Assembly: GCA_040398845.1 (NCBI GenBank)
Contig: JBBATH010000002.1
Coordinates: 75,559 to 139,558 of the forward strand
Direction of reading: 5' to 3'
Source of the DNA: Candidatus Nanopelagicales bacterium
Lineage (GTDB): Bacteria; Actinomycetota; Actinomycetes; S36-B12
Length of the DNA stretch: 64,000 bases
A model generated the notes under the pieces. It saw nothing but the letters and a program-made list of their open reading frames with translations. It was not told where the DNA came from and did not search any database. Made by a program: the position numbers and the translations under genes. Numbering within the stretch: the first letter of the stretch is position 1; every line of letters starts with the position of its first letter. Positions 3,328-14,226 of the stretch are shown one piece after another.

Positions 3328-3357
3328 TTGGTCTGTGGGCCGCACTACGCTCATTCT

Positions 3358-4047
3358 ATGAGTTGTGCGGCCCACATTTGCGTCCCGCCCGTCACGGGCG
3401 TCATCTTCGATATTCACTCAACACTCATCGATCAGGGAAACGCGAGCCATTGGCTCGATGCCGCACTTCTCAGGTCTCCGACCCCGCTTGCGGCCGATGA
3501 GCGCGCAGCACTCGAGTCCTTCCTCGACCTCATCTGGGAGGGCGCACGGATCAGCGATCCCGAGAGCACACGAGACCTATCCTTCGCCGCCCATGAACGA
3601 GTGTTCCACGAGCTCCTCGCTGCCGGCCCCGGCATCGACCCGGCGCTCGGTGCGGCCCTCTACGGGGTCATGCTCGACGTGTGGCATGCATATGAGGACA
3701 CGGTCCCCACCTTGGAGGCCCTACAGGAGTTGGGGGTCAAGGTGTGCCTGCTGTCCAATGCCGGGGTCCCGATCCGGACGGTGCTCGATCGCGAGGGCCT
3801 CACACCGCTCATCAATGGAGTCGTCCTCTCATGCGAAGTGGGCCTGGTGAAGCCGGATATTCGAATCTTCCAAACAGCCCTTGACGCAATCGCCTGCCCT
3901 GCAAACGAAGCGCTCATGGTTGGCGACAGCGGTCGCGATGACAGCGGGGGCACCGCGCTCGGCATCCGCACGCTCATCCTGCCGAGAACCAGCGGGCCAG
4001 TTCACGGACTGGGCGCTGTTGTGTCACTCGTGCGCCCCAGCCACTAG
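3358..4047 (+). CDS. HAD-superfamily hydrolase
   Basis: Motif I-like VIFDIHSTLID near the N-terminus, LLSNAG (motif II), and K...VGDSGRDD (motifs III/IV). The start is chosen to place motif I about 17 aa in. The TAG stop lies inside the CTAG at the IS boundary. Confidence 0.7.
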   Translation: MSCAAHICVPPVTGVIFDIHSTLIDQGNASHWLDAALLRSPTPLAADERAALESFLDLIWEGARISDPESTRDLSFAAHERVFHELLAAGPGIDPALGAALYGVMLDVWHAYEDTVPTLEALQELGVKVCLLSNAGVPIRTVLDREGLTPLINGVVLSCEVGLVKPDIRIFQTALDAIACPANEALMVGDSGRDDSGGTALGIRTLILPRTSGPVHGLGAVVSLVRPSH

Positions 4048-4618
4048 GGCGTGTCTCCAATGTTGAGCGGGTGTGAGGCCTGATCATGGTGATAGGTCAC
4101 GTACCGCTGTTCTTTCTGAGGAGATGTGGGCTCGTATTGAGCCGTCGCTGCCTCCAGTGAAGGGGGAGATGGGCAGGCCGATGCGGTCTGAGAACCGCAC
4201 GCTGATTGAGGGGTAGATCTAGCGTCTTCGAACGGGGTGCGCGTGGCGTGATCTGCCAGCGGAGTTCGGGCCGTGGCAGACGGTCTGGAAGCGTCACGCT
4301 CGCTTCTGCAAGGACAGGACGTGGGACGCGGTCCTGATCGCTGTCCAGGCCGAGGCGGATGCCAAGGGGGAGATCGCCTGGAATGTGTCGGTCAACTCCA
4401 CGATGGCCCGTGTTCACCAGCATGGGGCTACTGCTCCGAGGTCTGACGTGAAGGTCACCGCTCACACAGGGGGCTCGGTCGAATGACAAAGCATCGCTGG
4501 GTAGCGGGAACGAACCGAACGATCACGCCATCGGTCATTCCCGGGGTGGCCTGACGACCAAGACCCATGCACTGGTCAACGGCCGTGGGCTGCCGCAGGT
4601 CCTGATCCTGACGACCGG
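4044..4618 (+). mobile_element. Truncated copy (left 575 bp) of a decayed IS5-family / IS427-group-like insertion sequence
   Basis: By eye, base-for-base the same as 8305..8879 (offset 4261); the ORF track gives identical translations for 4097..4489 and 8358..8750. It starts with the IR ctagggcgtgtctcc. It encodes a DUF4096-type transposase N-terminus, LSEEMWARIEPSLP...RLRTGCAWRDLPAEFGPWQTVWKRHARFCKDRTWD, broken by in-frame stops (LIEG*I*). Homology ends abruptly at 4618. Confidence 0.85.
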
Positions 4619-4839
4619 AGGCAGTCAGCAAGGTCGGACCGGTCATGAAGAATCTGGACCTCAAGAACCCACTCGTCCGTGACGCAATCCTGCCAGGGCA
4701 CAAGTCGCCGCTGGATTACTACGAGTGCAACATCGCCATCGTCGCCGATTACACGTACACCTAATCCAGAACCTGTTTGGCCCCGAGCAACAAATTGACA
4801 TTCCAGATTTCATGAATACACGTGTGATAGGGTTCAGAC

Positions 4840-5886
4840 ATGGTAGTAAGCGTCCCTGCCCTGCTACAGGATGAGCTTGCCCGTCGTGACTGGCGACAGG
4901 CGGACCTCTGCCGCGTGCTCGGTTGGTCGACGCAGTCACTCTCTGAGCTCATGCAAGGCAAACGCCGGCTTGATACATCGATGGCTTTGGACCTCGAGTG
5001 CCTCACCTGCGAAGGTGCTGAGTACTGGCTCAACGCCCAACTCGCTGCTGACCTCGACAGTGCCCGGCGCAAGGACAGCCTCGCTGATCGAAACTCCAAC
5101 ATCCGTGCACGAGCCGAAGTGGAGTCGCTGGCACCAGTTCGCGAACTCATCCGCCGCCATTACGTCACAGCCAAGGAGCCGAGCGATCAGCTTGAGCAGG
5201 TTCGCCGACTCATCGGTGACGATGTGGCCTTCGGCGCCTTCGCAAAGCGAAGTGTCAATGGCACACCATTCACCCGAACGCAGGCTGCGTGGATGGCGAT
5301 TGCCCGGGACGTGGCCCACACGAGGGTTAGTAACGCCTTCAATTGCGAGCTCTTCGCGAAGTTTGCTGCCGAGCTGCCAAGGACTGTCCGTGACCCCGAA
5401 CACTTCCGTCGTCTGCCCGCTGACTTCGCAAGCCTAGGTGTTCGCATCGTATACGTGAAGCCGTTTCCCGGTGGCCGCATCGATGGCGTGTCCATGCGCC
5501 TAGACGACAAACCGATGATCGCCTTGTCGGGGCGAGGCAAGCGCCTCGACAAAGTTCTCTTCGCCCTACTTCACGAGTGTGCTCACATTGTCAGTGGAGA
5601 TTGGCTTCTCGGTCCTCGCGTGCACGAGGACAATCACGAGCAAGTCGTTGGTGATGATGCATCCGAAGCCGCCATTAGCGCTCTGGCGACTGACTGGGTA
5701 TTCCCCCGTGGGATGACCTTCCGTGGCCCACCCACGCGCCAGATCGTCCAAGATGTGGCCGATGAGTTCAACGTGGCGCCAGCAATCGTCGTAGGCCATC
5801 TCCAGCACTCCGGTGTTATCGATTGGTCATCCATTCTCAGCCGAGGACTACCCACCGTGGAGGAGCAGCTGATGTCTTGGACATAA
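4840..5886 (+). CDS. Xre/HigA-like HTH fused to an ImmA/IrrE (COG2856) zinc metallopeptidase
   Basis: 348 aa. N-terminal HTH RQADLCRVLGWSTQSLSELMQGKRRL. C-terminal HExxH in ALLHECAHIVSGD, typical of ImmA/IrrE peptidases. Confidence 0.8.
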   Translation: MVVSVPALLQDELARRDWRQADLCRVLGWSTQSLSELMQGKRRLDTSMALDLECLTCEGAEYWLNAQLAADLDSARRKDSLADRNSNIRARAEVESLAPVRELIRRHYVTAKEPSDQLEQVRRLIGDDVAFGAFAKRSVNGTPFTRTQAAWMAIARDVAHTRVSNAFNCELFAKFAAELPRTVRDPEHFRRLPADFASLGVRIVYVKPFPGGRIDGVSMRLDDKPMIALSGRGKRLDKVLFALLHECAHIVSGDWLLGPRVHEDNHEQVVGDDASEAAISALATDWVFPRGMTFRGPPTRQIVQDVADEFNVAPAIVVGHLQHSGVIDWSSILSRGLPTVEEQLMSWT

Positions 5887-5891
5887 AACAC

Positions 5892-5924
5892 GTCCGGATG
5901 GGTGCACGAAGCACCCACCCGGAC
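5892..5924 (+). terminator. Strong hairpin directly after the HTH-ImmA stop (possible terminator or attenuator)
   Basis: GTCCGGATGGGTGC acgaa GCACCCACCCGGAC: 14-nt arms with 1 mismatch and a 5-nt loop, beginning 6 nt after the stop. No U-tract follows. Confidence 0.45.
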
Positions 5925-5991
5925 ATTGCCAAAGCGGCTGCAACCGCTAGGCCCCCTCCCAGCCACGCGAAGAACCGAAAAGGACTTCATC

Positions 5992-6696
5992 ATGCTAACC
6001 CCTGACCGCTCCTGCTGTTCGTGCGATCCACCCCTTTGGCGTGCGGCGCGCGAAACTCTTCTCACCAGAGATCTGTTTTGGTACCCACCCGGCTTTCCTG
6101 TTGTGGGCGAATGGCAGATGCCTCTTTTGCCTGCACCCTCGCTCGACACGAGCCCGAGCCACTTCGCCCCCTACGACAAGAGAGCCGCGAACGAGGAACC
6201 TTCCTCGACGCTACTCCACGGGTACACGGCCAACCGGAAGCTACAGAGCCAACTGACTCGGCCCCACGAGTGGAGCGAGCGATTCGAAGGCTTTTGGGGA
6301 ACCGTCACACCAGACTTCTCCATGTGGGTCGACGACCCACTCGACATCAAGGTCTTTGCTACGCGCATGAGTCGCTCCGTCGGCGCTTTTCACGCCAGTC
6401 GCGGTCACCGTGTGCTACCCGGCATTCGCTGGACCGGACCCGCTGATTACGCATTCTGCTTCGATGGCATCACCCGGGGATCCGCAGTATCGGTGTCCAA
6501 CTACGGGTCGTGGAGGGATCCGGAGATGAGAGACCGCTTCCTCATCGGACTACCCGTGATGGTCGAAGTCCTCGAACCGTCAGTCGTCTTCGTTCACGGC
6601 ACTATGGATCACCGCTTATTCAGGATCCTCCAGAGCAAGACAGCCTTTATCCCACTGCAGACGCGCTGGAACAGCATGACAACGCAGGCTGGCTGA
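5992..6696 (+). CDS. DUF4417-like protein
   Basis: The ATG at 5992 is preceded by aaaagga. From memory of the DUF4417 profile it matches at FWGTVTPDFSMWVDDPLDIKVFATRMSRSVGAFHASRGHRVLPGIRWTGPADYAFCFDGITRGSAVSVSNYG (PDFS...YR.R..G...G..ViP...W....y.fcFdGi..gs.v.vS). Not verified by a search. Confidence 0.6.
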   Translation: MLTPDRSCCSCDPPLWRAARETLLTRDLFWYPPGFPVVGEWQMPLLPAPSLDTSPSHFAPYDKRAANEEPSSTLLHGYTANRKLQSQLTRPHEWSERFEGFWGTVTPDFSMWVDDPLDIKVFATRMSRSVGAFHASRGHRVLPGIRWTGPADYAFCFDGITRGSAVSVSNYGSWRDPEMRDRFLIGLPVMVEVLEPSVVFVHGTMDHRLFRILQSKTAFIPLQTRWNSMTTQAG

Positions 6697-7082
6697 TGGG
6701 CGGGCATTCTGGAGGTGGTTTCGCCGCCGGATCGCCTCGCTCCCCGCAAGCTTTCGAGAGGAACGCTTCTGCGCTTCTTCGTCGCTTCCCAGTGAACCAA
6801 CAGGGCCTCTTCGGCGTTCCAGGCCGTGGCAGCACGCGCCGGCTGTACAGCGACGACCCTGCGGCCACGGCCCGATACTTCTACGACACCCTCGGTCGTG
6901 GCGGTGCGCTACGCCGCATCGATCGTGGTTACATCCGCACTTTCGATGACGGTACGCACGTCACCTACCGCCCAGTCTCAGGATCAGACGGGAGTCCGGC
7001 CATCCAGATCACTGTCCGAAACCCAAACTCTCCCCTGGCCCGGTACCAAAAAATCCACTTCATGAAAGGCTCCGACCAATGA
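6696..7082 (+). CDS. hypothetical 128-aa protein (candidate small toxin-like module)
   Basis: Its ATG shares one base with the upstream TGA (TGATG at 6694-6698). Sequence MGGHSGGGF...IRTFDDGTHVTYRPVSGSDGSPAIQITVRNPNSPLARYQKIHFMKGSDQ. No domain recognised. The long 6510 start would overlap the DUF4417-like gene by 187 nt. Confidence 0.5.
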   Translation: MGGHSGGGFAAGSPRSPQAFERNASALLRRFPVNQQGLFGVPGRGSTRRLYSDDPAATARYFYDTLGRGGALRRIDRGYIRTFDDGTHVTYRPVSGSDGSPAIQITVRNPNSPLARYQKIHFMKGSDQ

Positions 7083-7666
7083 AACACGTGAACGTCACCC
7101 TCGCTCAGCGCGACATGTCCATGCTCGCGCCGCTCATCGGCGGACGTTGGGTCTTTATGGCCGGTGAAGCAATGACCCCTCACATGTTTTCGCCCGTGGA
7201 TGTCATCGTGAACACGACCAACGGTGCCGTGCGCATCGTGTCGGAGACGTTCGACTCCGACTTCGAAGGTGGCGAGGACGATACATACGCGCGCTTGTGG
7301 ATTTCCGATGACGTGAGCAGTCTGCGCGTCGCCCGACGCGAGGGGAACGTCTACGTCCACCACAGGGATGAACTCATTGATGACGTTCTCGTCGTGAGAG
7401 ACACCGTGTCGGCCATTGAGTCCGGGGAGACCCTGTGGACGTTGACTACCGATGTCGCCATCGTGTTCCAACTCAGCGGTAGCGTCATCTCGATTGCAAA
7501 AGGCAGTCACCACACTGAGATGCTCAGCGTGACCATGGCCCGCGGTCTGAAGTTGCTTGAGATCCCTGACTGTGTCGATGAATGGCAGGACGATCTGACC
7601 ATCCGCCACGAGTCCAGTCGAGAGTTGATCCCTCTAGCGACCTTGATGGCAGACGGGCCGAGGTGA
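7079..7666 (+). CDS. hypothetical 195-aa acidic protein (candidate cognate partner/immunity)
   Basis: Its ATG overlaps the upstream stop (ATGA at 7079-7082). Acidic, with no signal peptide or TM segment. No recognisable domain. Confidence 0.5.
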   Translation: MKHVNVTLAQRDMSMLAPLIGGRWVFMAGEAMTPHMFSPVDVIVNTTNGAVRIVSETFDSDFEGGEDDTYARLWISDDVSSLRVARREGNVYVHHRDELIDDVLVVRDTVSAIESGETLWTLTTDVAIVFQLSGSVISIAKGSHHTEMLSVTMARGLKLLEIPDCVDEWQDDLTIRHESSRELIPLATLMADGPR

Positions 7667-7737
7667 CTAAGGATGCGCGAATTAACAACGTAGGTTTTCG
7701 CGTGTGAGGGGCGTACGGCCGTATTACGTCCGCGAGC

Positions 7738-8304
7738 GTGGAACTTGTCGATTCCGTCGGGCGACGGTACGAGGTGTTACGGCCGCATCTGGATGAGCGT
7801 CAGCGTCGGTTGCTTCCCGGGGCGGAGGCAGGGGTGCTGGGGCGTGGCGGGATCAAGGTGGTCGCGGTGGCGACGGGCACTCACCCGGACACGGTTGCTC
7901 GGGGGGTGCAGGACTTGGAGGGCATTGACGAACCGGTGGTGCGGGTGCCGTTGCCGGGCGGTGGTCGCAAGAAGTTGTCGGTGAGTGACCCGCAACTGCT
8001 GGCGGAGTTGAAGGCGTTGGTGGATCCGGAGACCCGGGGGGATCCGATGTCGTTGCTGGTGTGGACGACGAAGCCGACGAGGAACTTGGCTGCGACGTTG
8101 ACCCAGTCGGGTCATCGGGTGTTGGACCGTACGGTGGCCAAAATGCTGCGTGACTTGGGTTTCGGGTTGCAGGAGAATGCGAAGGTGACTAAAGGTCGTC
8201 AGCATGAGGACCGTGATGCCCAATTCGGCTACTTGGCGGGGCAGGTCGCCGAGCAGGCGCGAGATGGCCAACCGGTGATCTCCGTTGACACCAGGAAGAA
8301 AGAA
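7738..8304 (+). pseudogene. ISAzo13-family (DDE_Tnp_ISAZ013) transposase, N-terminal fragment interrupted by the IS5-like element
   Basis: RRYEVLRPHLDERQRRLLPGAEAGVLGRGGIKVVAVATG...RGDPMSLLVWTTKPTRNLAATLTQSGHRV...RQHEDRDAQFGYL...QPVISVDTRKKEL matches the N-terminal third of ISAzo13-type transposases as I remember them. The frame runs straight into the IS inverted repeat at 8305. Only GEF continues after the IS. Confidence 0.75.
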
Positions 8305-9222
8305 CTAGGGCGTGTCTCCAATGTTGAGCGGGTGTGAGGCCTGATCATGGTGATAGGTCACGTACCGCTGTTCTTTCTGAGGAGATGTGGGCTCGTATTG
8401 AGCCGTCGCTGCCTCCAGTGAAGGGGGAGATGGGCAGGCCGATGCGGTCTGAGAACCGCACGCTGATTGAGGGGTAGATCTAGCGTCTTCGAACGGGGTG
8501 CGCGTGGCGTGATCTGCCAGCGGAGTTCGGGCCGTGGCAGACGGTCTGGAAGCGTCACGCTCGCTTCTGCAAGGACAGGACGTGGGACGCGGTCCTGATC
8601 GCTGTCCAGGCCGAGGCGGATGCCAAGGGGGAGATCGCCTGGAATGTGTCGGTCAACTCCACGATGGCCCGTGTTCACCAGCATGGGGCTACTGCTCCGA
8701 GGTCTGACGTGAAGGTCACCGCTCACACAGGGGGCTCGGTCGAATGACAAAGCATCGCTGGGTAGCGGGAACGAACCGAACGATCACGCCATCGGTCATT
8801 CCCGGGGTGGCCTGACGACCAAGACCCATGCACTGGTCAACGGCCGTGGGCTGCCGCAGGTCCTGATCCTGACGACCGGCAATGCGAGTGATTCTCCTGC
8901 GCTGCCAGTGCTGCTGAACCAGCTCCGGATCCCGCGCTGCGGCCCTGGCCGGCCTCGGACAACCCCGGACGCGTTGCGCGGTGTCGAAGCTTACTCGACC
9001 AAGGCCCACAGCGAGAACAAAGGCTGCCGCGGTGGCCAGCCGATCGGCTTCGACCCCGAGGACGACAAGAACCGCAACCTCATCGAACGCGCCTCCAACA
9101 AAGCAAACACTGGCGCCGACTCGCGACCCGCTACGACAAGCACGCATTCATCTACAGAGGCGGCATGGTCCTCGCATCATCCATTCTGTGGCTCACCGTC
9201 TGAGTTCGGAGACACGCCCTAG
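8305..9222 (+). mobile_element. Complete-ended but decayed IS5-family / IS427-group-like insertion sequence (918 bp)
   Basis: Perfect 15-bp terminal inverted repeats: ctagggcgtgtctcc (8305-8319) and ggagacacgccctag (9208-9222), with CTAG at both junctions. The transposase frame has at least 3 in-frame stops (LIEG*I*, GGSVE*). It also has a late frameshift, where QSKHWRRLATRYDKHAFIYRGGMVLASSILWLTV reads in another frame. The segment between KAHS and RGG is shortened. Confidence 0.85.
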
Positions 9223-9306
9223 GTGAGTTCCCGACACCACTACCGCAACAGGTGGGGGGAACGGACGGGACTGCGGCGTCTAGTTGGCGGCGTACGATTT
9301 CGCGCT

Positions 9307-9882
9307 ATGGGCGACAACGCGGGGTCCACGTCTCGCAGCATCGGGGATGTGCGTTGGGCAGTCATTGTCAACGGCCCACCGGGTTCTGGGAAGACCACGA
9401 CTGCTCACGCGCTTGCGGCGGTGCTGCGGCTCCCCGTGTTCTCCAAGGATGCGGTGAAGGAAACGCTGCTCGACGGGTTGGGCTACGCGAGCCGTGAAGA
9501 TTCACGCGCCATCGGCGCGGCGAGCGGCGAAGTCGTCTGGACGCTGCTGCGGGACTGCCCGACACCTGCCATCGTGGAGTCCTGGTTGGCACCCCACACG
9601 CGAGACATCGTTCGCGCGGGCCTGCGTCGAGCGGCAGTCGAGAGGGTCATCGAGGTGTGGTGCTCCTGTCCATTCGACGAGAACCGACGCCGATACGCCG
9701 AGCGCGAGCGCCATCCGGGGCACTACGACGTCGCACTGCTCCCCGAGTTGGACGAGGTGCTCCGGACCGCTGAACCTCTGGGTCTTGGCGAAGTCCTCCG
9801 AGTGGAGACCGACCGCGACCTGGACGCAATGGGCTTGGCGCGGTCTGTTCTGGCTGCCGCCCGGCTAGAACCGCAAGGCTAA
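9307..9882 (+). CDS. P-loop NTPase / AAA_33-like kinase family protein
   Basis: Walker A VIVNGPPGSGKTTTAHAL. About 190 aa from MGDNAGS. The longer 9223 start begins at the IS junction, so it is unlikely. Confidence 0.6.
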   Translation: MGDNAGSTSRSIGDVRWAVIVNGPPGSGKTTTAHALAAVLRLPVFSKDAVKETLLDGLGYASREDSRAIGAASGEVVWTLLRDCPTPAIVESWLAPHTRDIVRAGLRRAAVERVIEVWCSCPFDENRRRYAERERHPGHYDVALLPELDEVLRTAEPLGLGEVLRVETDRDLDAMGLARSVLAAARLEPQG

Positions 9883-10029
9883 GCGCCCAGCGAAGGGAGC
9901 GCGCAAGGCCGCCGACATCGAGCTCCGCCCTACCGCTGTCCAACACACCTACCGCTACCAGCTCCGCAGGCCGGCAGGGTGACGTCGCTCCTGTCGTGCC
10001 CGGTTCCTTGCGTGAACGCGATCGTCGGG

Positions 10030-10443
10030 ATGCTGGCCCTGCTCGAGTCCGACTTTAGGGTGCGTCTGGTAAGCGGCGAAGGAAGCGAACGTGTCCTCCC
10101 ACCGCAGATGAAGGTGATTCTCCGCCGAGCAGGCGAGATCATGGGTCAGGGCCACGACGTCGATGTGCTCGACGCCAGCAGTGAAACGCTCACTCCGAAC
10201 GAGGCGGCAGACCTCATCGGAATCAGCCGGCCCACCCTTCTCAAGCTCATCGATGAGGGAGTGCTCACGGCGACCAATGTTCCTGGGAGCTCGCATCGCC
10301 GTCTCGACCGCCTTGAGGTTGAGGCTTTCCGGGACAGCCGCCTCGAGATGCAGCCCGGTCTCAACGCCGCCGCTGCCGAGGCAGGCGCGACTGGGCTCTT
10401 CACTCGTCTACCTCGCAAGGCCCGGGCGCGGAACGGTCGGTAA
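10030..10443 (+). CDS. helix-turn-helix (excisionase/MerR-like) antitoxin of a PIN toxin pair
   Basis: RVRLVSGEGSERVLPPQMKVILRRAGEIMGQGHDVDVL...TLTPNEAADLIGISRPTLLKLIDEGVL...HRRLDRLEVEAF matches the HTH antitoxin family that precedes PIN toxins in actinobacteria. Its stop overlaps the next ATG (TAATG). Confidence 0.65.
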   Translation: MLALLESDFRVRLVSGEGSERVLPPQMKVILRRAGEIMGQGHDVDVLDASSETLTPNEAADLIGISRPTLLKLIDEGVLTATNVPGSSHRRLDRLEVEAFRDSRLEMQPGLNAAAAEAGATGLFTRLPRKARARNGR

Positions 10444-10927
10444 TGAGCCGCCGGGTCGTCGTCTACGCCGACACGAACGTCCTGTACCCGTACTACATCT
10501 CCGACCTGCTGCTATGACTGGCGTCAGACGGGGTCAGACGGAGGCGACTCACCCGCGACGTTGGGCGAGACGAGAGGTCCGTGCACAGCCAGTCGGACGC
10601 GGCTCGCGCGCACCTCAAGCGCGGGCGAGGGTGAGCGAGGCCCAATGGCGGACGAAGATGAGGCTCACCACTGGACCGGATGCCGATGACCACCCTCACC
10701 AGGCTGCGGCCATCTGCGCGCGGGCCGACTACCTCCTGACTCACGACAGCAGGGGATTCCCTGTTGGTCCCTTGCGCGAACAGGGTGTCACCGTCACGAG
10801 TGTGGATGACTTTCTCTGCGGCATCTTGGCCGAGCAGCCGGATGACGTCCTAGACACCGTGCAGAGTCGGGCCAGAAGCCTGAAGCAGCCACCGATGACT
10901 CTCGAGCGTTACCCAGGGAAGCACTGA
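10443..10927 (+). pseudogene. PIN-domain toxin, disrupted
   Basis: Opens MSRRVVVYADTNVLYPYYISDLLL, then hits an in-frame TGA. The family C-terminus (DADDHPHQAAAICARADYLLTHDSRGFP...VDDFLCGIL...SLKQPPMTLERY) is readable only in another frame, inside track ORF 10163..10927. Confidence 0.65.
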
Positions 10928-11356
10928 TTTCCCTATCCCTACTCATCCCCAAGGTTTTCACTTGAGTCATATCCACCGTGAATCCCGATGAGTTATGCAC
11001 TCACGAGGGACTCGTCGGGATTCGGGGTGGATCTGTCCGAATCGGCGCTCACTCGACTCACCACGCATGCCCGGAAACAGCCTGCGCGGCAAACAGCCTG
11101 ATGATCAGCGCTTCCCTAGAGGCTCTCGCGCTGCCAGCCCCTCGGTTCGCCGAACTGGTTGACCACGCATCGGACACTCACCTGTCCCGACTCGTTCGAC
11201 TACTCGTGCGTCTGCGCAAAATATCCAAATAAAGGCACGACGCCACCAGCGCCGCTTTGTGGAGTCAGTTTCGTGCGGCAGGTGCTCTATCTCGTAAACC
11301 TGAGCCACCCATGGGCTACGGTCCTTTATGCAGGCTGCGCGAAGGGAGGACCGGTC

Positions 11357-11974
11357 ATGAAGCATCGGACGACGGCTGGACTGATCGCGGCTACGGCCCT
11401 CTTGGGCAGCATTGCTACTGTCGTGTCAGCGTCTGCAGCCCCGGTGGGCGAGTTCACCACCTCCAACCAGATCGACGGAAGTTCGACTCCTCTCGGTATC
11501 GCGAAGAGCGCTGACGGGAGCATGTGATGCGCCCAGTGGGGCGGCAACAGCATCGGGCGCATCACCCCGGGCGGGGTGGTCACGAAGCACGCGGTGCCCA
11601 CCCCAGGTGTGGACCCGATGGGGATCGCGGCTGGTCCGGACGGGGCAATGTGGTTCACGGAGCGTGTTGCATCTCGGATTGCCTCGGTGGGCACAGGAAG
11701 GTGCAGGTCGGTGACGGCCCGTGTTACCGGCCGGACTGAGGTCGGCTCGACATTGCGGTGTGCGCTCGCCAACAATTCGGGATGGACGATCGCGGCAACC
11801 TCCCAAGTCTGGCTCAGAAACGGTGCGGTGATCCCGAGAGCAAATGGGCGAACCTACGTCGTCAAGGGCCAAGATGCAGGCAAGAACCTCACGTGCCAAG
11901 CGACGGTTACATTCAGTCCAGCGTTGAACCAGATGGGTGCCCAGTCCAAGACAAGGCCGATCGGCCACAGGTAG
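11357..11974 (+). pseudogene. secreted Vgb/NHL-like repeat protein with a single in-frame TGA (paralog of 25936..26448)
   Basis: RBS gaagggagga and a signal peptide (MKHRTTAGLIAATALLGSIATVVSASA). The TGA at 11525-11527 interrupts ...SADGSM*CAQWGGNSIGRI, and the same frame continues through 11974. The stop sits where the repeat motif has Trp (GPDGAMWF later in this protein, GPNGAMWF in the paralog). Confidence 0.7.
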
Positions 11975-11998
11975 TCCCTTTGGTTGCAATGCTGGGAC

Positions 11999-13237
11999 CT
12001 ACGTCTTCCCGCTGGGCCAGTCACGGTCAGGAGCGGCACCTGGTGCCGGCAACGTGACGCCGGCTTCGAGGTCGGCGAGGAGGTCAAGCAGGCCGGTGGC
12101 TTCCCAGGTGCGGTTGCGCTTGCCTTGCGACGCCCGGGTGAGCACGCCCGCGGATTCAAGTTGGAGGAGGGCGTCGTTGACAACGGCCTTGGTTCGCCCG
12201 GTGGCGGCCACCGCGACGGGGCCGGAGATCATGGGGTGCGCGGGCATGACATCGATGAGAGCCCAGGCTACGGAGTCCGCGCGCGGATTCGCGGCCGTGC
12301 CAAGCATCGCCCGCCACTGGTCCTGGAGGGCCTCCACCCGCGCGAGGTAGCGGCTGGCCAGCCCCGCGGACTGGGCAGTCGCCGCGGCGAAGGTCGTCAG
12401 CCAGGCGTCCACGTCCCCGCGCGCATAGGCGTCCAGCCCCGCGATGTAGGCGCCCGTGTCGCCAGCGAGCACGACGCTGATCGGCGGCACGTACATCGGG
12501 GTCAGCCCACGCCGCCGGAGCACGACGTGGATAAGGGCCCGGCCGATGCGTCCGTTGCCGTCCAGGAACGGGTGGATGACCTCGAACTGAGCATGCACCA
12601 GGCCGGCCTGGATCACCGGCGGCAGCGCCACATCGTTGATCGAAGCGCACAGGTCCTCCAGCAGTCGTGGGACCTCCTGCGGCGGTGGTCCCACGAAGCT
12701 GGCCCCGCACGGGTTGTAGTTGTTCCCGCCGATCCAGATCTGCTCGGTGCGCACGACGCCGGCGACGTGGGCGTTCGCGACCGTAGCCATCAGCGCGGCG
12801 TGAATGCTCACCAAATCGTTGAGCGTCACCGCGCTCGAACTGGTGGCATGGTCGATGGCGAGCTCCATCGCGTCGATGTTCGCCAGGATCTCCGCCGCCG
12901 TGGATCCGACCTTCCGCCCAGTCTCGAGCCGCGCCTCCGCACGCGCCAGGTCGCGGGCGTCGACCTGCATGCCCTCCACCTTCGAGGATGCGATCGACTC
13001 CGTGCGCAGCAGCAGCCGGGCCAGCGGCGGCAAAGCAGGCAGGGCGCGCGCATTCAACCGGTGGACGGCAGTCTCCGCATCGGATACCACCCCCACCAGG
13101 TCCGCTGAAAACAGCTCGTCGAAATCGGACAGCTCGTGAGGAACGAACGACTCGTAATGGCAGGCACGCCGGAACCTGGGCGGCGCATACCGAGCAGGGT
13201 CGTACTCCCACGCCCGACGCACCAGAGTGCCGCGCAT
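11999..13237 (-). CDS. Fic family protein (AMPylase-type) with N-terminal inhibitory helix and C-terminal wHTH
   Basis: Fic motif HPFLDGNGRIGRAL. Upstream motif SSKVEG fits (S/T)xxxE(G/N). 412 aa. Confidence 0.85.
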   Translation of the reverse strand: MRGTLVRRAWEYDPARYAPPRFRRACHYESFVPHELSDFDELFSADLVGVVSDAETAVHRLNARALPALPPLARLLLRTESIASSKVEGMQVDARDLARAEARLETGRKVGSTAAEILANIDAMELAIDHATSSSAVTLNDLVSIHAALMATVANAHVAGVVRTEQIWIGGNNYNPCGASFVGPPPQEVPRLLEDLCASINDVALPPVIQAGLVHAQFEVIHPFLDGNGRIGRALIHVVLRRRGLTPMYVPPISVVLAGDTGAYIAGLDAYARGDVDAWLTTFAAATAQSAGLASRYLARVEALQDQWRAMLGTAANPRADSVAWALIDVMPAHPMISGPVAVAATGRTKAVVNDALLQLESAGVLTRASQGKRNRTWEATGLLDLLADLEAGVTLPAPGAAPDRDWPSGKT

Positions 13238-13374
13238 ATCCCCGACTCACTGAACCACATCGAATGTATTAGTACTCAAACCATACTATGGAGATTCCTC
13301 AGACACCATGCGCGACGGTAACCGGTGCCCACCCACGAAGCGTCACGACCCCGTGGCACTGAACACCACCCGGG

Positions 13375-13461
13375 GTGGAGAACTCGCTGACGGACGCCGG
13401 CCGCGCCTTCGAACCGGTGCTCGCGGCACTTTCCCGCTGGGGTCGCACCCACACCTTCTAG
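13375..13461 (+). pseudogene. C-terminal remnant of an HxlR-type winged-helix regulator
   Basis: VENSLTDAGRAFEPVLAALSRWGRTHTF* resembles the HxlR C-terminus (VEYsLTe.G..L.pvl..L..Wg). A stop lies immediately upstream in this frame, so only about 28 codons remain. Confidence 0.35.
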
Positions 13462-13467
13462 ACGGAG

Positions 13468-14226
13468 CTAGTCGGCGTTCTTCTCATAGAGCAGCCGCAG
13501 GCCGAGCAGGGTGAGATCTGGCTCATGATGGGTAATGGTGAGCGACTCAGGGACCACGATCGGTGCGAGACCACCGGTCGCGACAACCGCGGTCACGTCG
13601 CCAAGCTCCTCGATGATCCGGTCGACAAGTCCGTCGACCTGTCCAGCAAAGCCATAGAGCGCGCCGGACTGGAGCGCCTCGACGGTGTTCTTGCCGATAA
13701 CCGACTTGGGTCGGACGAGCTCGACCTTGCGAAGTTGCGCGGCGCGCTGGGCGAGTGCATCAAGGGAGATCTCGATCCCCGGAGCAAGAGCGCCGCCGAG
13801 GAACTCTCCCTTCGCCGACACGACATCGAGGTTCGTTGAGGTCCCAAAGTCGACAACGATGCATGGCCCGCCGAAAAGATGGTGGGCCGCAATCGTATTG
13901 ACGATGCGATCGGCACCCACCTCCTTGGGGTTGTCGGTGAGCACCGGCACGCCGGTCTTGATCCCCGGCTCGACGATGACCGTCGGAACATCGTCGAAAT
14001 ACCGTCCGAGCATCATCCGCATCTCGCGCAGCACAGCCGGGACTGTGCTGCACAACACGATCCCGGTGACCGGCTCCTGATCGGCGAGGAGTCCGCGAAA
14101 GGTGAGGACCATCTCGTCGGCGGTCGTGCGGGCATCGGTCTTGATGCGCCAGGAATTCAGGAGGATGTCGCCGTCGAAGAGACCCAGGACAGTGTTCGTG
14201 TTTCCGACGTCAATCGCGAGCAGCAC
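13468..14226 (-). CDS. coaX: type III pantothenate kinase
   Basis: MLLAIDVGNTNTVLGLF..., DFGTSTN, ATGGLA motifs. 252 aa. Confidence 0.9.
   Translation of the reverse strand: MLLAIDVGNTNTVLGLFDGDILLNSWRIKTDARTTADEMVLTFRGLLADQEPVTGIVLCSTVPAVLREMRMMLGRYFDDVPTVIVEPGIKTGVPVLTDNPKEVGADRIVNTIAAHHLFGGPCIVVDFGTSTNLDVVSAKGEFLGGALAPGIEISLDALAQRAAQLRKVELVRPKSVIGKNTVEALQSGALYGFAGQVDGLVDRIIEELGDVTAVVATGGLAPIVVPESLTITHHEPDLTLLGLRLLYEKNAD

Follow-up and report, generated by a model that had tools for sequence, protein, structure and literature searches.

A recurrent gene cassette with an Xre-metallopeptidase, a DUF4417 protein and a predicted toxin–immunity pair in an actinobacterial genomic island

A cassette of four same-strand genes was analyzed in a 64-kb stretch of the genome of a Candidatus Nanopelagicales bacterium (assembly GCA_040398845.1, contig JBBATH010000002.1, positions 75,559 to 139,558). 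This stretch is referred to below as the window, and coordinates without a locus name are those of the window. The proteins encoded by the cassette were labelled P1, P2, P3 and P4. The last two, P3 and P4, are very probably a toxin and its cognate immunity protein. They are preceded by a DUF4417 protein (P2) and by a protein in which a helix-turn-helix (HTH) domain of the Xre type is joined to a metallopeptidase (P1). The reading that we favor, with modest confidence, is that the cassette is a toxin–immunity module switched by the Xre-metallopeptidase, in which DUF4417 is a partner specific to the leader of the toxin. A preliminary description of the region, made from its sequence alone, had proposed a protease-gated effector cassette. 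A multi-gene unit headed by an Xre-metallopeptidase was indeed found, and the predicted effector can be narrowed to a toxin domain of the RHS type (P3) that is accompanied by an immunity protein (P4).

Predicted toxin and immunity protein

P3 (6696–7082, + strand, 128 amino acids (aa)) is a basic protein with an isoelectric point of 10.83, and P4 (7079–7666, + strand, 195 aa) is acidic, as had been described, with a value of 4.68. The stop codon of P3 and the start codon of P4 overlap by 4 nucleotides (nt; ATGA at 7079–7082), by which the translation of P4 is predicted to be coupled to that of P3. The P2 stop and P3 start codons overlap by 1 nt (TGATG at 6694–6698); both overlaps are exactly those given earlier. 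Neither P3 nor P4 has a match in Pfam, NCBIfam, PADLOC or the Protein Data Bank (PDB), and a word-indexed protein search gave few relatives of the two. A profile search across 1.84 billion cluster representatives retrieved 456 relatives of P3, nearly all of them free-standing proteins of 120–135 aa, and a metagenome scan with a P3 sub-profile yielded 80 loci. The protein is built of a glycine-rich leader, MGGHSGGG (~25 aa), followed by a predicted toxin core of ~100 aa.

The hidden Markov model (HMM) of P3 matched the final ~100 residues of five open reading frames (ORFs) with a length of 837–1753 aa (L083, L094, L090, L093 and L089; independent E-values 1e-21 to 1e-23). These ORFs encode RHS/YD-repeat proteins, with matches to RHS_repeat (1e-56 to 1e-240) and TEN_YD-shell, and the model also matched the C-terminal ends of other long ORFs. 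A C-terminal toxin domain carried on a repeat protein is the feature by which polymorphic toxins are defined (PMC3482391). Each of the RHS–P3 ORFs is followed by an ORF of 169–185 aa. An iterative jackhmmer search with the window P4 among 7336 ORFs of the fetched loci detected 76 members of the P4 family, 68 of which start directly after a P3-bearing ORF, RHS toxins included; the remaining 8 adjoin P3 remnants. Since the P4 family stands directly downstream of both free-standing and RHS-borne P3, P4 is predicted to be the immunity protein. 

Two further observations concern this pair. A database protein of 280 aa (P0103) is a natural fusion of P3 and P4 (1.9e-30 and 8.8e-15, respectively); this fusion and the ATGA coupling are the two observations with a bearing on the predicted binding of P3 by P4. 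In addition, an intact P4 gene lies beside a decayed or truncated P3 in loci L006, L007, L071 (5001–5736) and L072, which is an “orphan immunity” pattern.

In the alignment of the P3 family, residues G40, R92, P101 and H121 are invariant, and N23 is nearly so. At least 90% of the family start with MG, and the consensus of the leader is MGxGxGGGY. No Pfam domain and no N-terminal secretion or trafficking domain were found in P3 (128 aa), in which only the leader of ~25 residues precedes the core. The homology with the RHS-borne sequences begins at approximately residue 28, indicating that the first ~25 residues, MGGHSGGGFAAGS..., are specific to the free-standing form. 3D modeling using AlphaFold2 (AF2; predicted local distance difference test, pLDDT, 71) gave a helix–strand–helix arrangement followed by five strands. 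The fold match with the best probability was the CdiA-CT toxin 5t86_A, which has the BECR fold; this match is weak (probability 0.87, E 0.09), and an RNase-like nature of P3 may be taken as a lead only. Of the fold and profile comparisons suggested at the outset, those of the P2, P3 and P4 profiles with PDB and those of the P2 and P3 models in Foldseek gave nothing significant. A relationship between P3 and the toxin Ntox37 was rejected (hhalign probability 0.3%), and a viral match of P3 in L011 proved to be a chance match of ATARYFYDG within a tail-fibre-like ORF.

Conserved gene order, DUF4417 and the Xre-metallopeptidase

Selection on the four genes was estimated by the Nei–Gojobori method from a comparison of the window with L001, a Logan contig with 74–77% aa identity (synonymous divergence, dS, 0.68–1.07). 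The ratio of nonsynonymous to synonymous divergence (dN/dS) was 0.24 for P1, 0.20 for P2, 0.14 for P3 and 0.13 for P4, so that all four genes are under purifying selection. The two ORFs first described as unknown are coding, with values that are not near 1. Near the 3′ end of P3, a run of A is shortened by 1 nt in L001 (2720–2770, against 7040–7082 of the window; CAAAAAATCC to CAGACATCC), which results in a frameshift. As an intact copy of the same P3 variant exists (P0037), the frameshift is an assembly error or a strain-specific lesion (pseudogenisation).

The order of an ImmA gene, a DUF4417 gene, a small ORF and an acidic ORF, the recurrence of which had been named as a check on the cassette, was found in many genomes. 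The DUF4417–P3–P4 triad is present at 43–50% identity in L003, L004 and L005. In L010 (Lachnospiraceae AC2012), genes for Xre (HTH_3 8.7e-16), ImmA (Peptidase_M78 7.4e-7, above the cut-off), DUF4417, P3 (39% identity) and an ORF of 185 aa stand together; Xre and ImmA are separate genes here, and the module is embedded among housekeeping genes. In approximately 40 of the 80 metagenome loci, DUF4417 (215–250 aa) abuts or overlaps the start of P3 (124–142 aa), which is followed by an ORF of 182–194 aa. Among the 39 loci that have at least 1.3 kb of upstream sequence, ImmA-like genes were counted directly upstream in 19 and Xre-like genes in 18, and fused Xre–ImmA proteins like P1 are encoded in L077 (357 aa) and L087 (375 aa). 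The order Xre, ImmA, DUF4417, P3, P4 recurs with short gaps or overlaps and spans Actinobacteria to Firmicutes, and DUF4417 is established as an obligatory neighbor of free-standing P3.

Some loci depart from this arrangement. In L063 (2588–4274) and L067 (804–2483) the order is permuted to P3, P4, DUF4417, and the linkage is retained. The 253-aa gene upstream in L005 and the TetR gene in L003 are unrelated to P1. The 117 non-redundant proteins that flank the cassettes include six tyrosine recombinases, resolvases, NikA/relaxase and many housekeeping proteins, and no virion genes were found among them. Wadjet, type I/II restriction–modification and AbiE are also present in this set; the flanks show an enrichment of integrases, relaxases and these defense genes, for which the neighborhoods were to be checked.

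P2 (5992–6696, + strand, 234 aa) matches DUF4417 (PF14386) with an E-value of 6e-27 over profile positions 3–173 of 183, and its score of 94.8 bits against a cut-off of 28.9 bears out the earlier assignment. The maximal ORF begins with GTG at 5902, and public gene calls start at ATG 5992. The protein is 27% identical to gp1 of the mycobacteriophage CloudWang3 (E 8e-21), and no ParB domain was found in it. AF2 modeling with 28 homologs (pLDDT 82.8) shows alternating beta/alpha units, and the P2 profile found nothing meaningful in PDB. Residues 74–85 of P2 (6211–6246, LLHGYTANRKLQ) contain A-N at the place of (D/H)-D in the conserved motif HFY-x-D-D-x-x-F, and L001 has A-D there. Literature mentioning DUF4417 assigns no function to it, and in one paper ParB-CTPase–DUF4417 fusions are described as frequent in phages. 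A programmed −1 frameshift joining P2 to P3, for which the open P3 frame upstream of the gene in high-GC loci would speak, was ruled out by low-GC loci that have a stop codon directly upstream.

P1 (4840–5886, + strand, 348 aa) had been described as an HTH of the Xre/HigA type joined to an ImmA/IrrE peptidase, and the profile matches support a HigA/Xre-type HTH with an HExxH metallopeptidase (COG2856/ImmA-IrrE-like). The N-terminal HTH shows similarity with HTH_31 (1.4e-4, 22.5 bits against a cut-off of 27) and with HigA of TIGR02607 (1.4e-7, 31.3 bits against 47.7), and residues 8–78 match Xre/HigA chains in PDB (E 6e-4 to 3e-3); homology of the HTH to Xre/HigA is likely, though under the curated thresholds. 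The HExxH motif is H245-E-C-A-H249 (HECAH, aa 245–249, nt 5572–5586). Local BLASTP alignment around this motif with the Pfam-confirmed ImmA of L010 gave an E-value of 1e-4, and in comparisons with the fused proteins of L077 and L087 only the HExxH region aligned. The Xre-peptidase model PD-Lambda-2_B of PADLOC aligned to residues 15–323 (3.9e-21), and two RmrA models matched 50–70 residues around HExxH (6e-4 and 1e-3). The two-part description of P1 is likely, with HTH and Peptidase_M78 matches that stay below the cut-offs. Judging from these similarities, P1 belongs, as a divergent protein, to the class of Xre-COG2856-like fusions, and its role as the regulatory switch of the cassette, as a predicted repressor-protease, is rather probable.

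As for DUF4417 in phages, at least 498 relatives were found in IMG/VR. The ParB–DUF4417 query matched 1011 cultured-phage records, some in the ParB part only, including 385 from Mycobacterium phages and 182 from Streptococcus phages; D29 was among the DUF4417 matches of a tblastn search. Glycine-rich leaders were counted in 80 DUF4417 phage loci (L096–L175, IMG/VR) containing 1780 ORFs of at least 80 aa. The pattern GG[RKHSG][GS][AGS] was found within the first 25 residues in 87 of these ORFs, 71 of which have the exact start MGG[RK]G[AS]. Nearly all leader ORFs share the strand of DUF4417 and begin between −90 and +1700 nt from its stop codon; tandem pairs are frequent. Their C-termini form 23 unrelated clusters; one is a Tox-PL1 glutamine deamidase (2.5e-17), and others resemble HExxH peptidases, JAB domains or ADP-ribosyltransferases (ARTs). 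The phage leader proteins look like an undescribed polymorphic effector family, and P3 appears to be one of a wider group of polymorphic effectors that carry such a leader and are linked to DUF4417. The link between DUF4417 and the leader is a genomic and statistical association, and the chances that DUF4417 acts through the P3 leader are about even.

The order in phages is DUF4417, with or without a ParB N-terminal domain, followed by one or two leader ORFs, just upstream of the terminase. In CloudWang3 (L176, 418–1925), gp1 is a DUF4417 protein (2.4e-68) and is followed by gp2, which starts with MGGRGGGGGPG, contains HELGH and is annotated as “peptidase”; Gladiator is another mycobacteriophage of this gp1/gp2 type. 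In the Streptococcus phage Javan23 (L177, 2971–4450), the DUF4417/leader genes are 0032 and 0033, and both gene pairs are located just ahead of the terminase. In L106 (2555–3268), L114 (4069–4731) and L110 (~338 nt past DUF4417), the leader has the form ...NLQ(F/L)F followed by GGRGA. Sequences of the NLQ(F/L)F type are the Prp/L27 cleavage motif, which is used by capsid and scaffold proteins of phage 80alpha (PMC9405229). Cleavage of the Prp type would expose an N-terminal GGRGA, as Met removal does in the MGGRGA forms. A different arrangement was observed at the end of a Firmicute prophage (L012, 6001–7602; GCA_054286725.1), where DUF4417 precedes a 90-aa Ntox37 toxin (8e-8) starting with MSKGNSGLFKGTKG. 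GH25 lysin and holin-like genes stand before this DUF4417, and a Cys-rich ORF of 78 aa and an acidic ORF of 117 aa stand after Ntox37. Ntox37 represents another kind of toxin that is coupled to DUF4417, besides P3.

Upstream region, flanks and history of the island

The 45 nt before the start codon of P1 (4795–4839, + strand) are conserved in L001. The two hexamers reported earlier in front of P1, TTGACA (4795–4800) and the −10-like TAGGGT (4828–4833), both exist, 2–4 nt away from the positions first given. They are separated by 27 nt, and a sigma-70 scan upstream of P1 found no promoter-like site; this spacing and the empty scan ruled them out as a sigma-70 promoter. TAGGGT is kept as TAGCGT in L001, and the box ends 6 nt upstream of the start codon. 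A candidate operator, CATTC-N10-GAATA (4799–4818), has a counterpart in L001, CATTC-N10-GAATG, that is equally far from the start codon, a comparison of the upstream region that rests on the alignment of two sequences. The repeat tool found no convincing operator palindrome upstream of P1. As no Shine–Dalgarno sequence was found before the P1 start, the P1 mRNA is probably leaderless, and the promoter is predicted to be autoregulated.

The hairpin between P1 and P2 (5892–5924, + strand) is as strong as had been described, with −26.1 kcal/mol and z = −5.8, and none of 200 shuffled sequences folded equally well. It may be an attenuator or a factor-independent terminator that has no U-tract on the + strand; the sole terminator-like call lies on the − strand. 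The P1–P2 spacers of the window and L001 share 88% identity, and the hairpin is kept with one compensatory and one broken pair.

Conserved housekeeping genes of Actinobacteria (lysS, coaX, nadB, panC, fol genes and ftsH) make up the backbone of the window. The cassette sits in a variable island (4043–13460) between the HAD hydrolase gene (3328–4047) and coaX (13468–14226). The island contains two insertion sequence (IS) copies of the IS5 family, an ISAzo13 fragment, an AAA_33 kinase (9223–9882), an HTH_17 protein (9979–10443), the gene of which is overlapped by an ORF with a weak PIN_3 match, and a Fic/DOC protein (11999–13237). The position of the four genes between the IS5-like stump, which ends at 4618, and the ISAzo13 fragment, which starts at 7738, agrees with the preliminary description. 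The lower GC bias at third codon positions (GC3) of the cassette was also found again; it is modest (0.65–0.75 in the four genes versus 0.73–0.85 in backbone genes).

The stump (4043–4618, + strand) is 100% identical to 8304–8879 and thus represents the first 576 bp of an IS5-family element. The fuller copy lies in direct orientation relative to it (8304–9230, + strand, right end approximate), matches DUF4096 (3.3e-13) and DDE_Tnp_1 (9.8e-5) and has its transposase frame in several pieces. The ISAzo13-type transposase fragment (7738–8303, + strand) is ended by this second IS5 copy. Its ORF (7738–8337) runs on into the copy, which starts at 8304, and matches DDE_Tnp_ISAZ013 (1.1e-31) over profile positions 1–101 of 308 only. 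This reading of the ISAzo13 ORF into the second copy indicates that the IS5 element was inserted into an ISAzo13 element (nested IS).

Two contigs, L008 (CAMCSO010000176.1) and L009 (CAMAWO010000002.1), are 90–98% identical to the backbone and retain at the cassette site only a P3 remnant and the first 28 codons of P4. The corresponding position in L009 spans only ~1.9 kb. The label “MAG: Bifidobacterium breve” (MAG, metagenome-assembled genome) that both carry is doubtful for DNA with 64% GC. In L001, no IS is located between P1 and a divergent homolog of the Fic gene upstream, and a Fic gene is also present in the island of the window.

The two direct IS5-family copies that bracket 4619–8303 recall a composite transposon, an IS-flanked unit with the cassette as its cargo, and IS-mobilized cargo is what had been proposed. 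This explanation is highly improbable, and it was rejected because two complete IS copies are not present: the left copy is a 576-bp stump without the other end, and within the bracket lies the ISAzo13 fragment, interrupted by the second IS5 copy. In addition, the L001 cassette has no IS next to P1, standing beside the Fic homolog, and the P3 remnant in L009 occupies the same site. The left stump, the IS-free flank of P1 in L001 and the L009 remnant together indicate that the cassette is older than the IS elements. The comparison of these loci points to the cassette being an old resident of the island that is degraded by IS activity.

Proposed mechanism and relation to known systems

In the proposed module, P1 would bind an operator overlapping its own promoter and keep the expression of the operon low, and the hairpin after P1 would further limit read-through into P2–P4. 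Any P3 that is made would be neutralized one-to-one by P4, the translation of which is predicted to be coupled to that of P3 at the ATGA overlap. A stress or infection signal would activate the P1 peptidase, which would inactivate the HTH or possibly cleave P4. The target of IrrE is DdrO, and that of ImmA is ImmR. ImmA/ImmR and IrrE are precedents for the inactivation of a repressor by a peptidase (PMC2701414). The switch would result in a burst of DUF4417 and toxin, DUF4417 would recognize or process the glycine-rich P3 leader to give a deployable toxin, and in the end the producing cell would stop growing or die, as in toxin–antitoxin (TA) or abortive-infection systems. Such an intracellular outcome is put forward tentatively, by analogy; it is preferred in view of the similarity to PD-lambda-2 and Rosmer and of the neighborhoods with defense genes and mobile elements.

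Several results weigh against the proposed module. P1 misses the cut-off of Pfam Peptidase_M78 (12.7 versus 22 bits, E 0.12), and jackhmmer searches seeded with Firmicute ImmA and Xre did not recruit it. Half of the triads are without any Xre or ImmA gene, which suggests that the core is DUF4417–P3–P4 and that the repressor-protease switch is a frequent modular add-on. The P3 model is of moderate confidence only (pLDDT 71), and Foldseek found no significant fold match for it in PDB and BFVD. For the P2 model, Foldseek gave only weak TIM-barrel-like matches in PDB (E at least 0.016, template modeling score at most 0.43), which were not used to assign a function. At a position that is a conserved D in almost every other DUF4417 protein, the window P2 carries N; with A-N in the conserved motif, its activity may therefore be altered or lost. 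The likeness between MGGHSGGG of P3 and MGGRGAS of the phage proteins is short and of low complexity. Toxin and immunity protein are co-induced and translationally coupled, so that induction alone would not free the toxin in the cell, which is a genuine obstacle to the intracellular outcome, and immunity proteins of polymorphic toxins are usually stable.

Co-induction and coupling of this kind fit the logic of colicins. In a different explanation, which we consider rather unlikely, the cassette is a delivered weapon. Here the switch would respond to SOS or prophage induction, as colicin operons do, and P3 with its leader would be freed of P4 and loaded by DUF4417 into particles of a phage or phage-like kind, or onto DNA that is being transferred; recipients without P4 would be killed, and kin would be protected by it. 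RHS toxins, which act between cells, use the same toxin–immunity pair, and orphan immunity genes exist. In phages, the DUF4417 and leader genes directly precede the terminase and portal genes and have no adjacent immunity genes, some leader proteins have a propeptide of the Prp/L27 type (...NLQFF′GGRGA), DUF4417 is often fused to the ParB N-terminal domain, and toxins packaged in capsids, those of the MuF type, have already been proposed (Zhang et al. 2012, PMC3482391). However, genes for virion structure, secretion or lysis are missing from the cassette, P2 is without a ParB domain, and neither the IMG/VR contigs nor the 80 DUF4417 phage loci yielded P3. The flanks show integrative or mobilizable elements and defense genes, and no virion genes. 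A chance adjacency of the Xre-COG2856 regulator of a decayed element, an orphan toxin–immunity cassette serving an RHS locus as stock for recombination and an unrelated phage gene for DUF4417 is improbable. It would agree with the orphan toxin/immunity cassettes known at polymorphic toxin loci (PMC3482391), with the regulator missing from half of the triads and with the erosion of the island, seen in the bare remnants of L008/L009 and the P3 frameshift of L001. Against it stand the own start codon of P3, its conserved leader and its tight coupling to DUF4417 in ~40 loci of two phyla, as well as the dN/dS of no more than 0.24 for all four genes and the short gaps or overlaps with which the five-gene order recurs; moreover, neither an RHS gene nor a further copy of P3 was found in the 64-kb window.

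A broader interpretation of DUF4417, which we regard as possible but not likely, is that it represents a new effector-handling system shared by phages and islands, which loads, tethers or activates effectors with a Gly-Gly-(Arg/His)-Gly leader; the cassette would then be a domesticated version with an immunity gene and a switch. Under this interpretation the exposed leader would arise by Met removal or by cleavage of the Prp type, and the effectors carrying it would be toxins, peptidases, deamidases and ART-like domains.

Among known systems, three-component TA-like systems with Xre-COG2856 were predicted by Makarova, Wolf and Koonin in 2009 (PMC2701414). As in those systems, an HTH-Xre domain fused to an HExxH peptidase heads a toxin operon, and the proposed logic is that of a protease inactivating an Xre repressor or an antitoxin. 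However, they have three components with a RelE or PIN toxin, whereas the payload of the cassette is DUF4417 with a domain of the polymorphic toxin type and a dedicated immunity protein of 195 aa, and P1 does not reach the M78 cut-off. By analogy, the cassette would extend the three-component system. RosmerTA (attributed to Millman et al. 2022) is reportedly a validated anti-phage TA-like system built on an Xre-peptidase; the RmrA match of P1 is weak, and no RmrT match was found with PADLOC. PD-lambda-2 (Vassallo et al. 2022, PMC9519451) is an experimentally validated abortive-infection system, and over-expression of its Xre-peptidase component is toxic by itself. P1 resembles its B component (PD-Lambda-2_B) in having a HigA-like HTH and a peptidase, but only B has a counterpart in the cassette, which is without the HigB-like upstream gene (A) and the third gene (C), similar to a P4-phage antitoxin. 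Upstream of P1 are the IS stump in the window and the divergent Fic gene in L001, and P2, P3 and P4 match no PADLOC model. Since the partner genes are absent, the cassette is not a member of PD-lambda-2 or RosmerTA.

The resemblance to RHS polymorphic toxins (Zhang et al. 2012, PMC3482391) lies in the P3 core, which is an RHS C-terminal domain, in the P4-family gene right after it and in the combination of a basic toxin with an acidic immunity protein; unlike them, P3 is free-standing, has no trafficking or repeat domain and is coupled to DUF4417 and a transcriptional switch. The DUF4417 genes of phages share with the MuF phage toxins (PMC3482391) the location near the terminase/portal genes and the variable toxin domains, Tox-PL1 included, on a constant N-terminus. 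In contrast to MuF toxins, the constant part is a short MGGRGA leader and a separate DUF4417 protein (with or without ParB), and no MuF domain is fused. Colicin operons likewise have a stress-responsive repressor, a co-expressed nuclease-like toxin and a tightly coupled immunity gene. The cassette differs from them in lacking a lysis gene as well as domains for receptor binding or translocation, and in having an Xre-peptidase as its repressor in place of LexA.

Pfam, NCBIfam, PADLOC, PDB and the searchable literature gave no entry for either protein family (toxin or immunity), for the architecture of five genes or for the link between DUF4417 and the leader, in line with the preliminary description, which knew of no described system with this gene combination. 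Two anonymous ORFs thereby become a predicted toxin–immunity pair from families outside Pfam, PADLOC and PDB, within a system of four to five genes (Xre, ImmA, DUF4417, toxin and immunity protein) that is widespread across Actinobacteria and Firmicutes and of which no description was found. If the cassette defends against phages, it would be a new type of payload for Xre-peptidase systems. The association with the leader also offers an initial clue to the function of DUF4417, a domain that D29-like mycobacteriophages carry as well and that always accompanies proteins with a shared glycine-rich N-terminus, and makes hypotheses on it approachable in phages of M. smegmatis and in Streptococcus prophages. 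If the effector-handling interpretation is true, polymorphic toxins would have a new route of trafficking or activation in DUF4417, and a function would be found for genes of the gp1/gp2 type in the hundreds of mycobacteriophages and Streptococcus prophages that have them.

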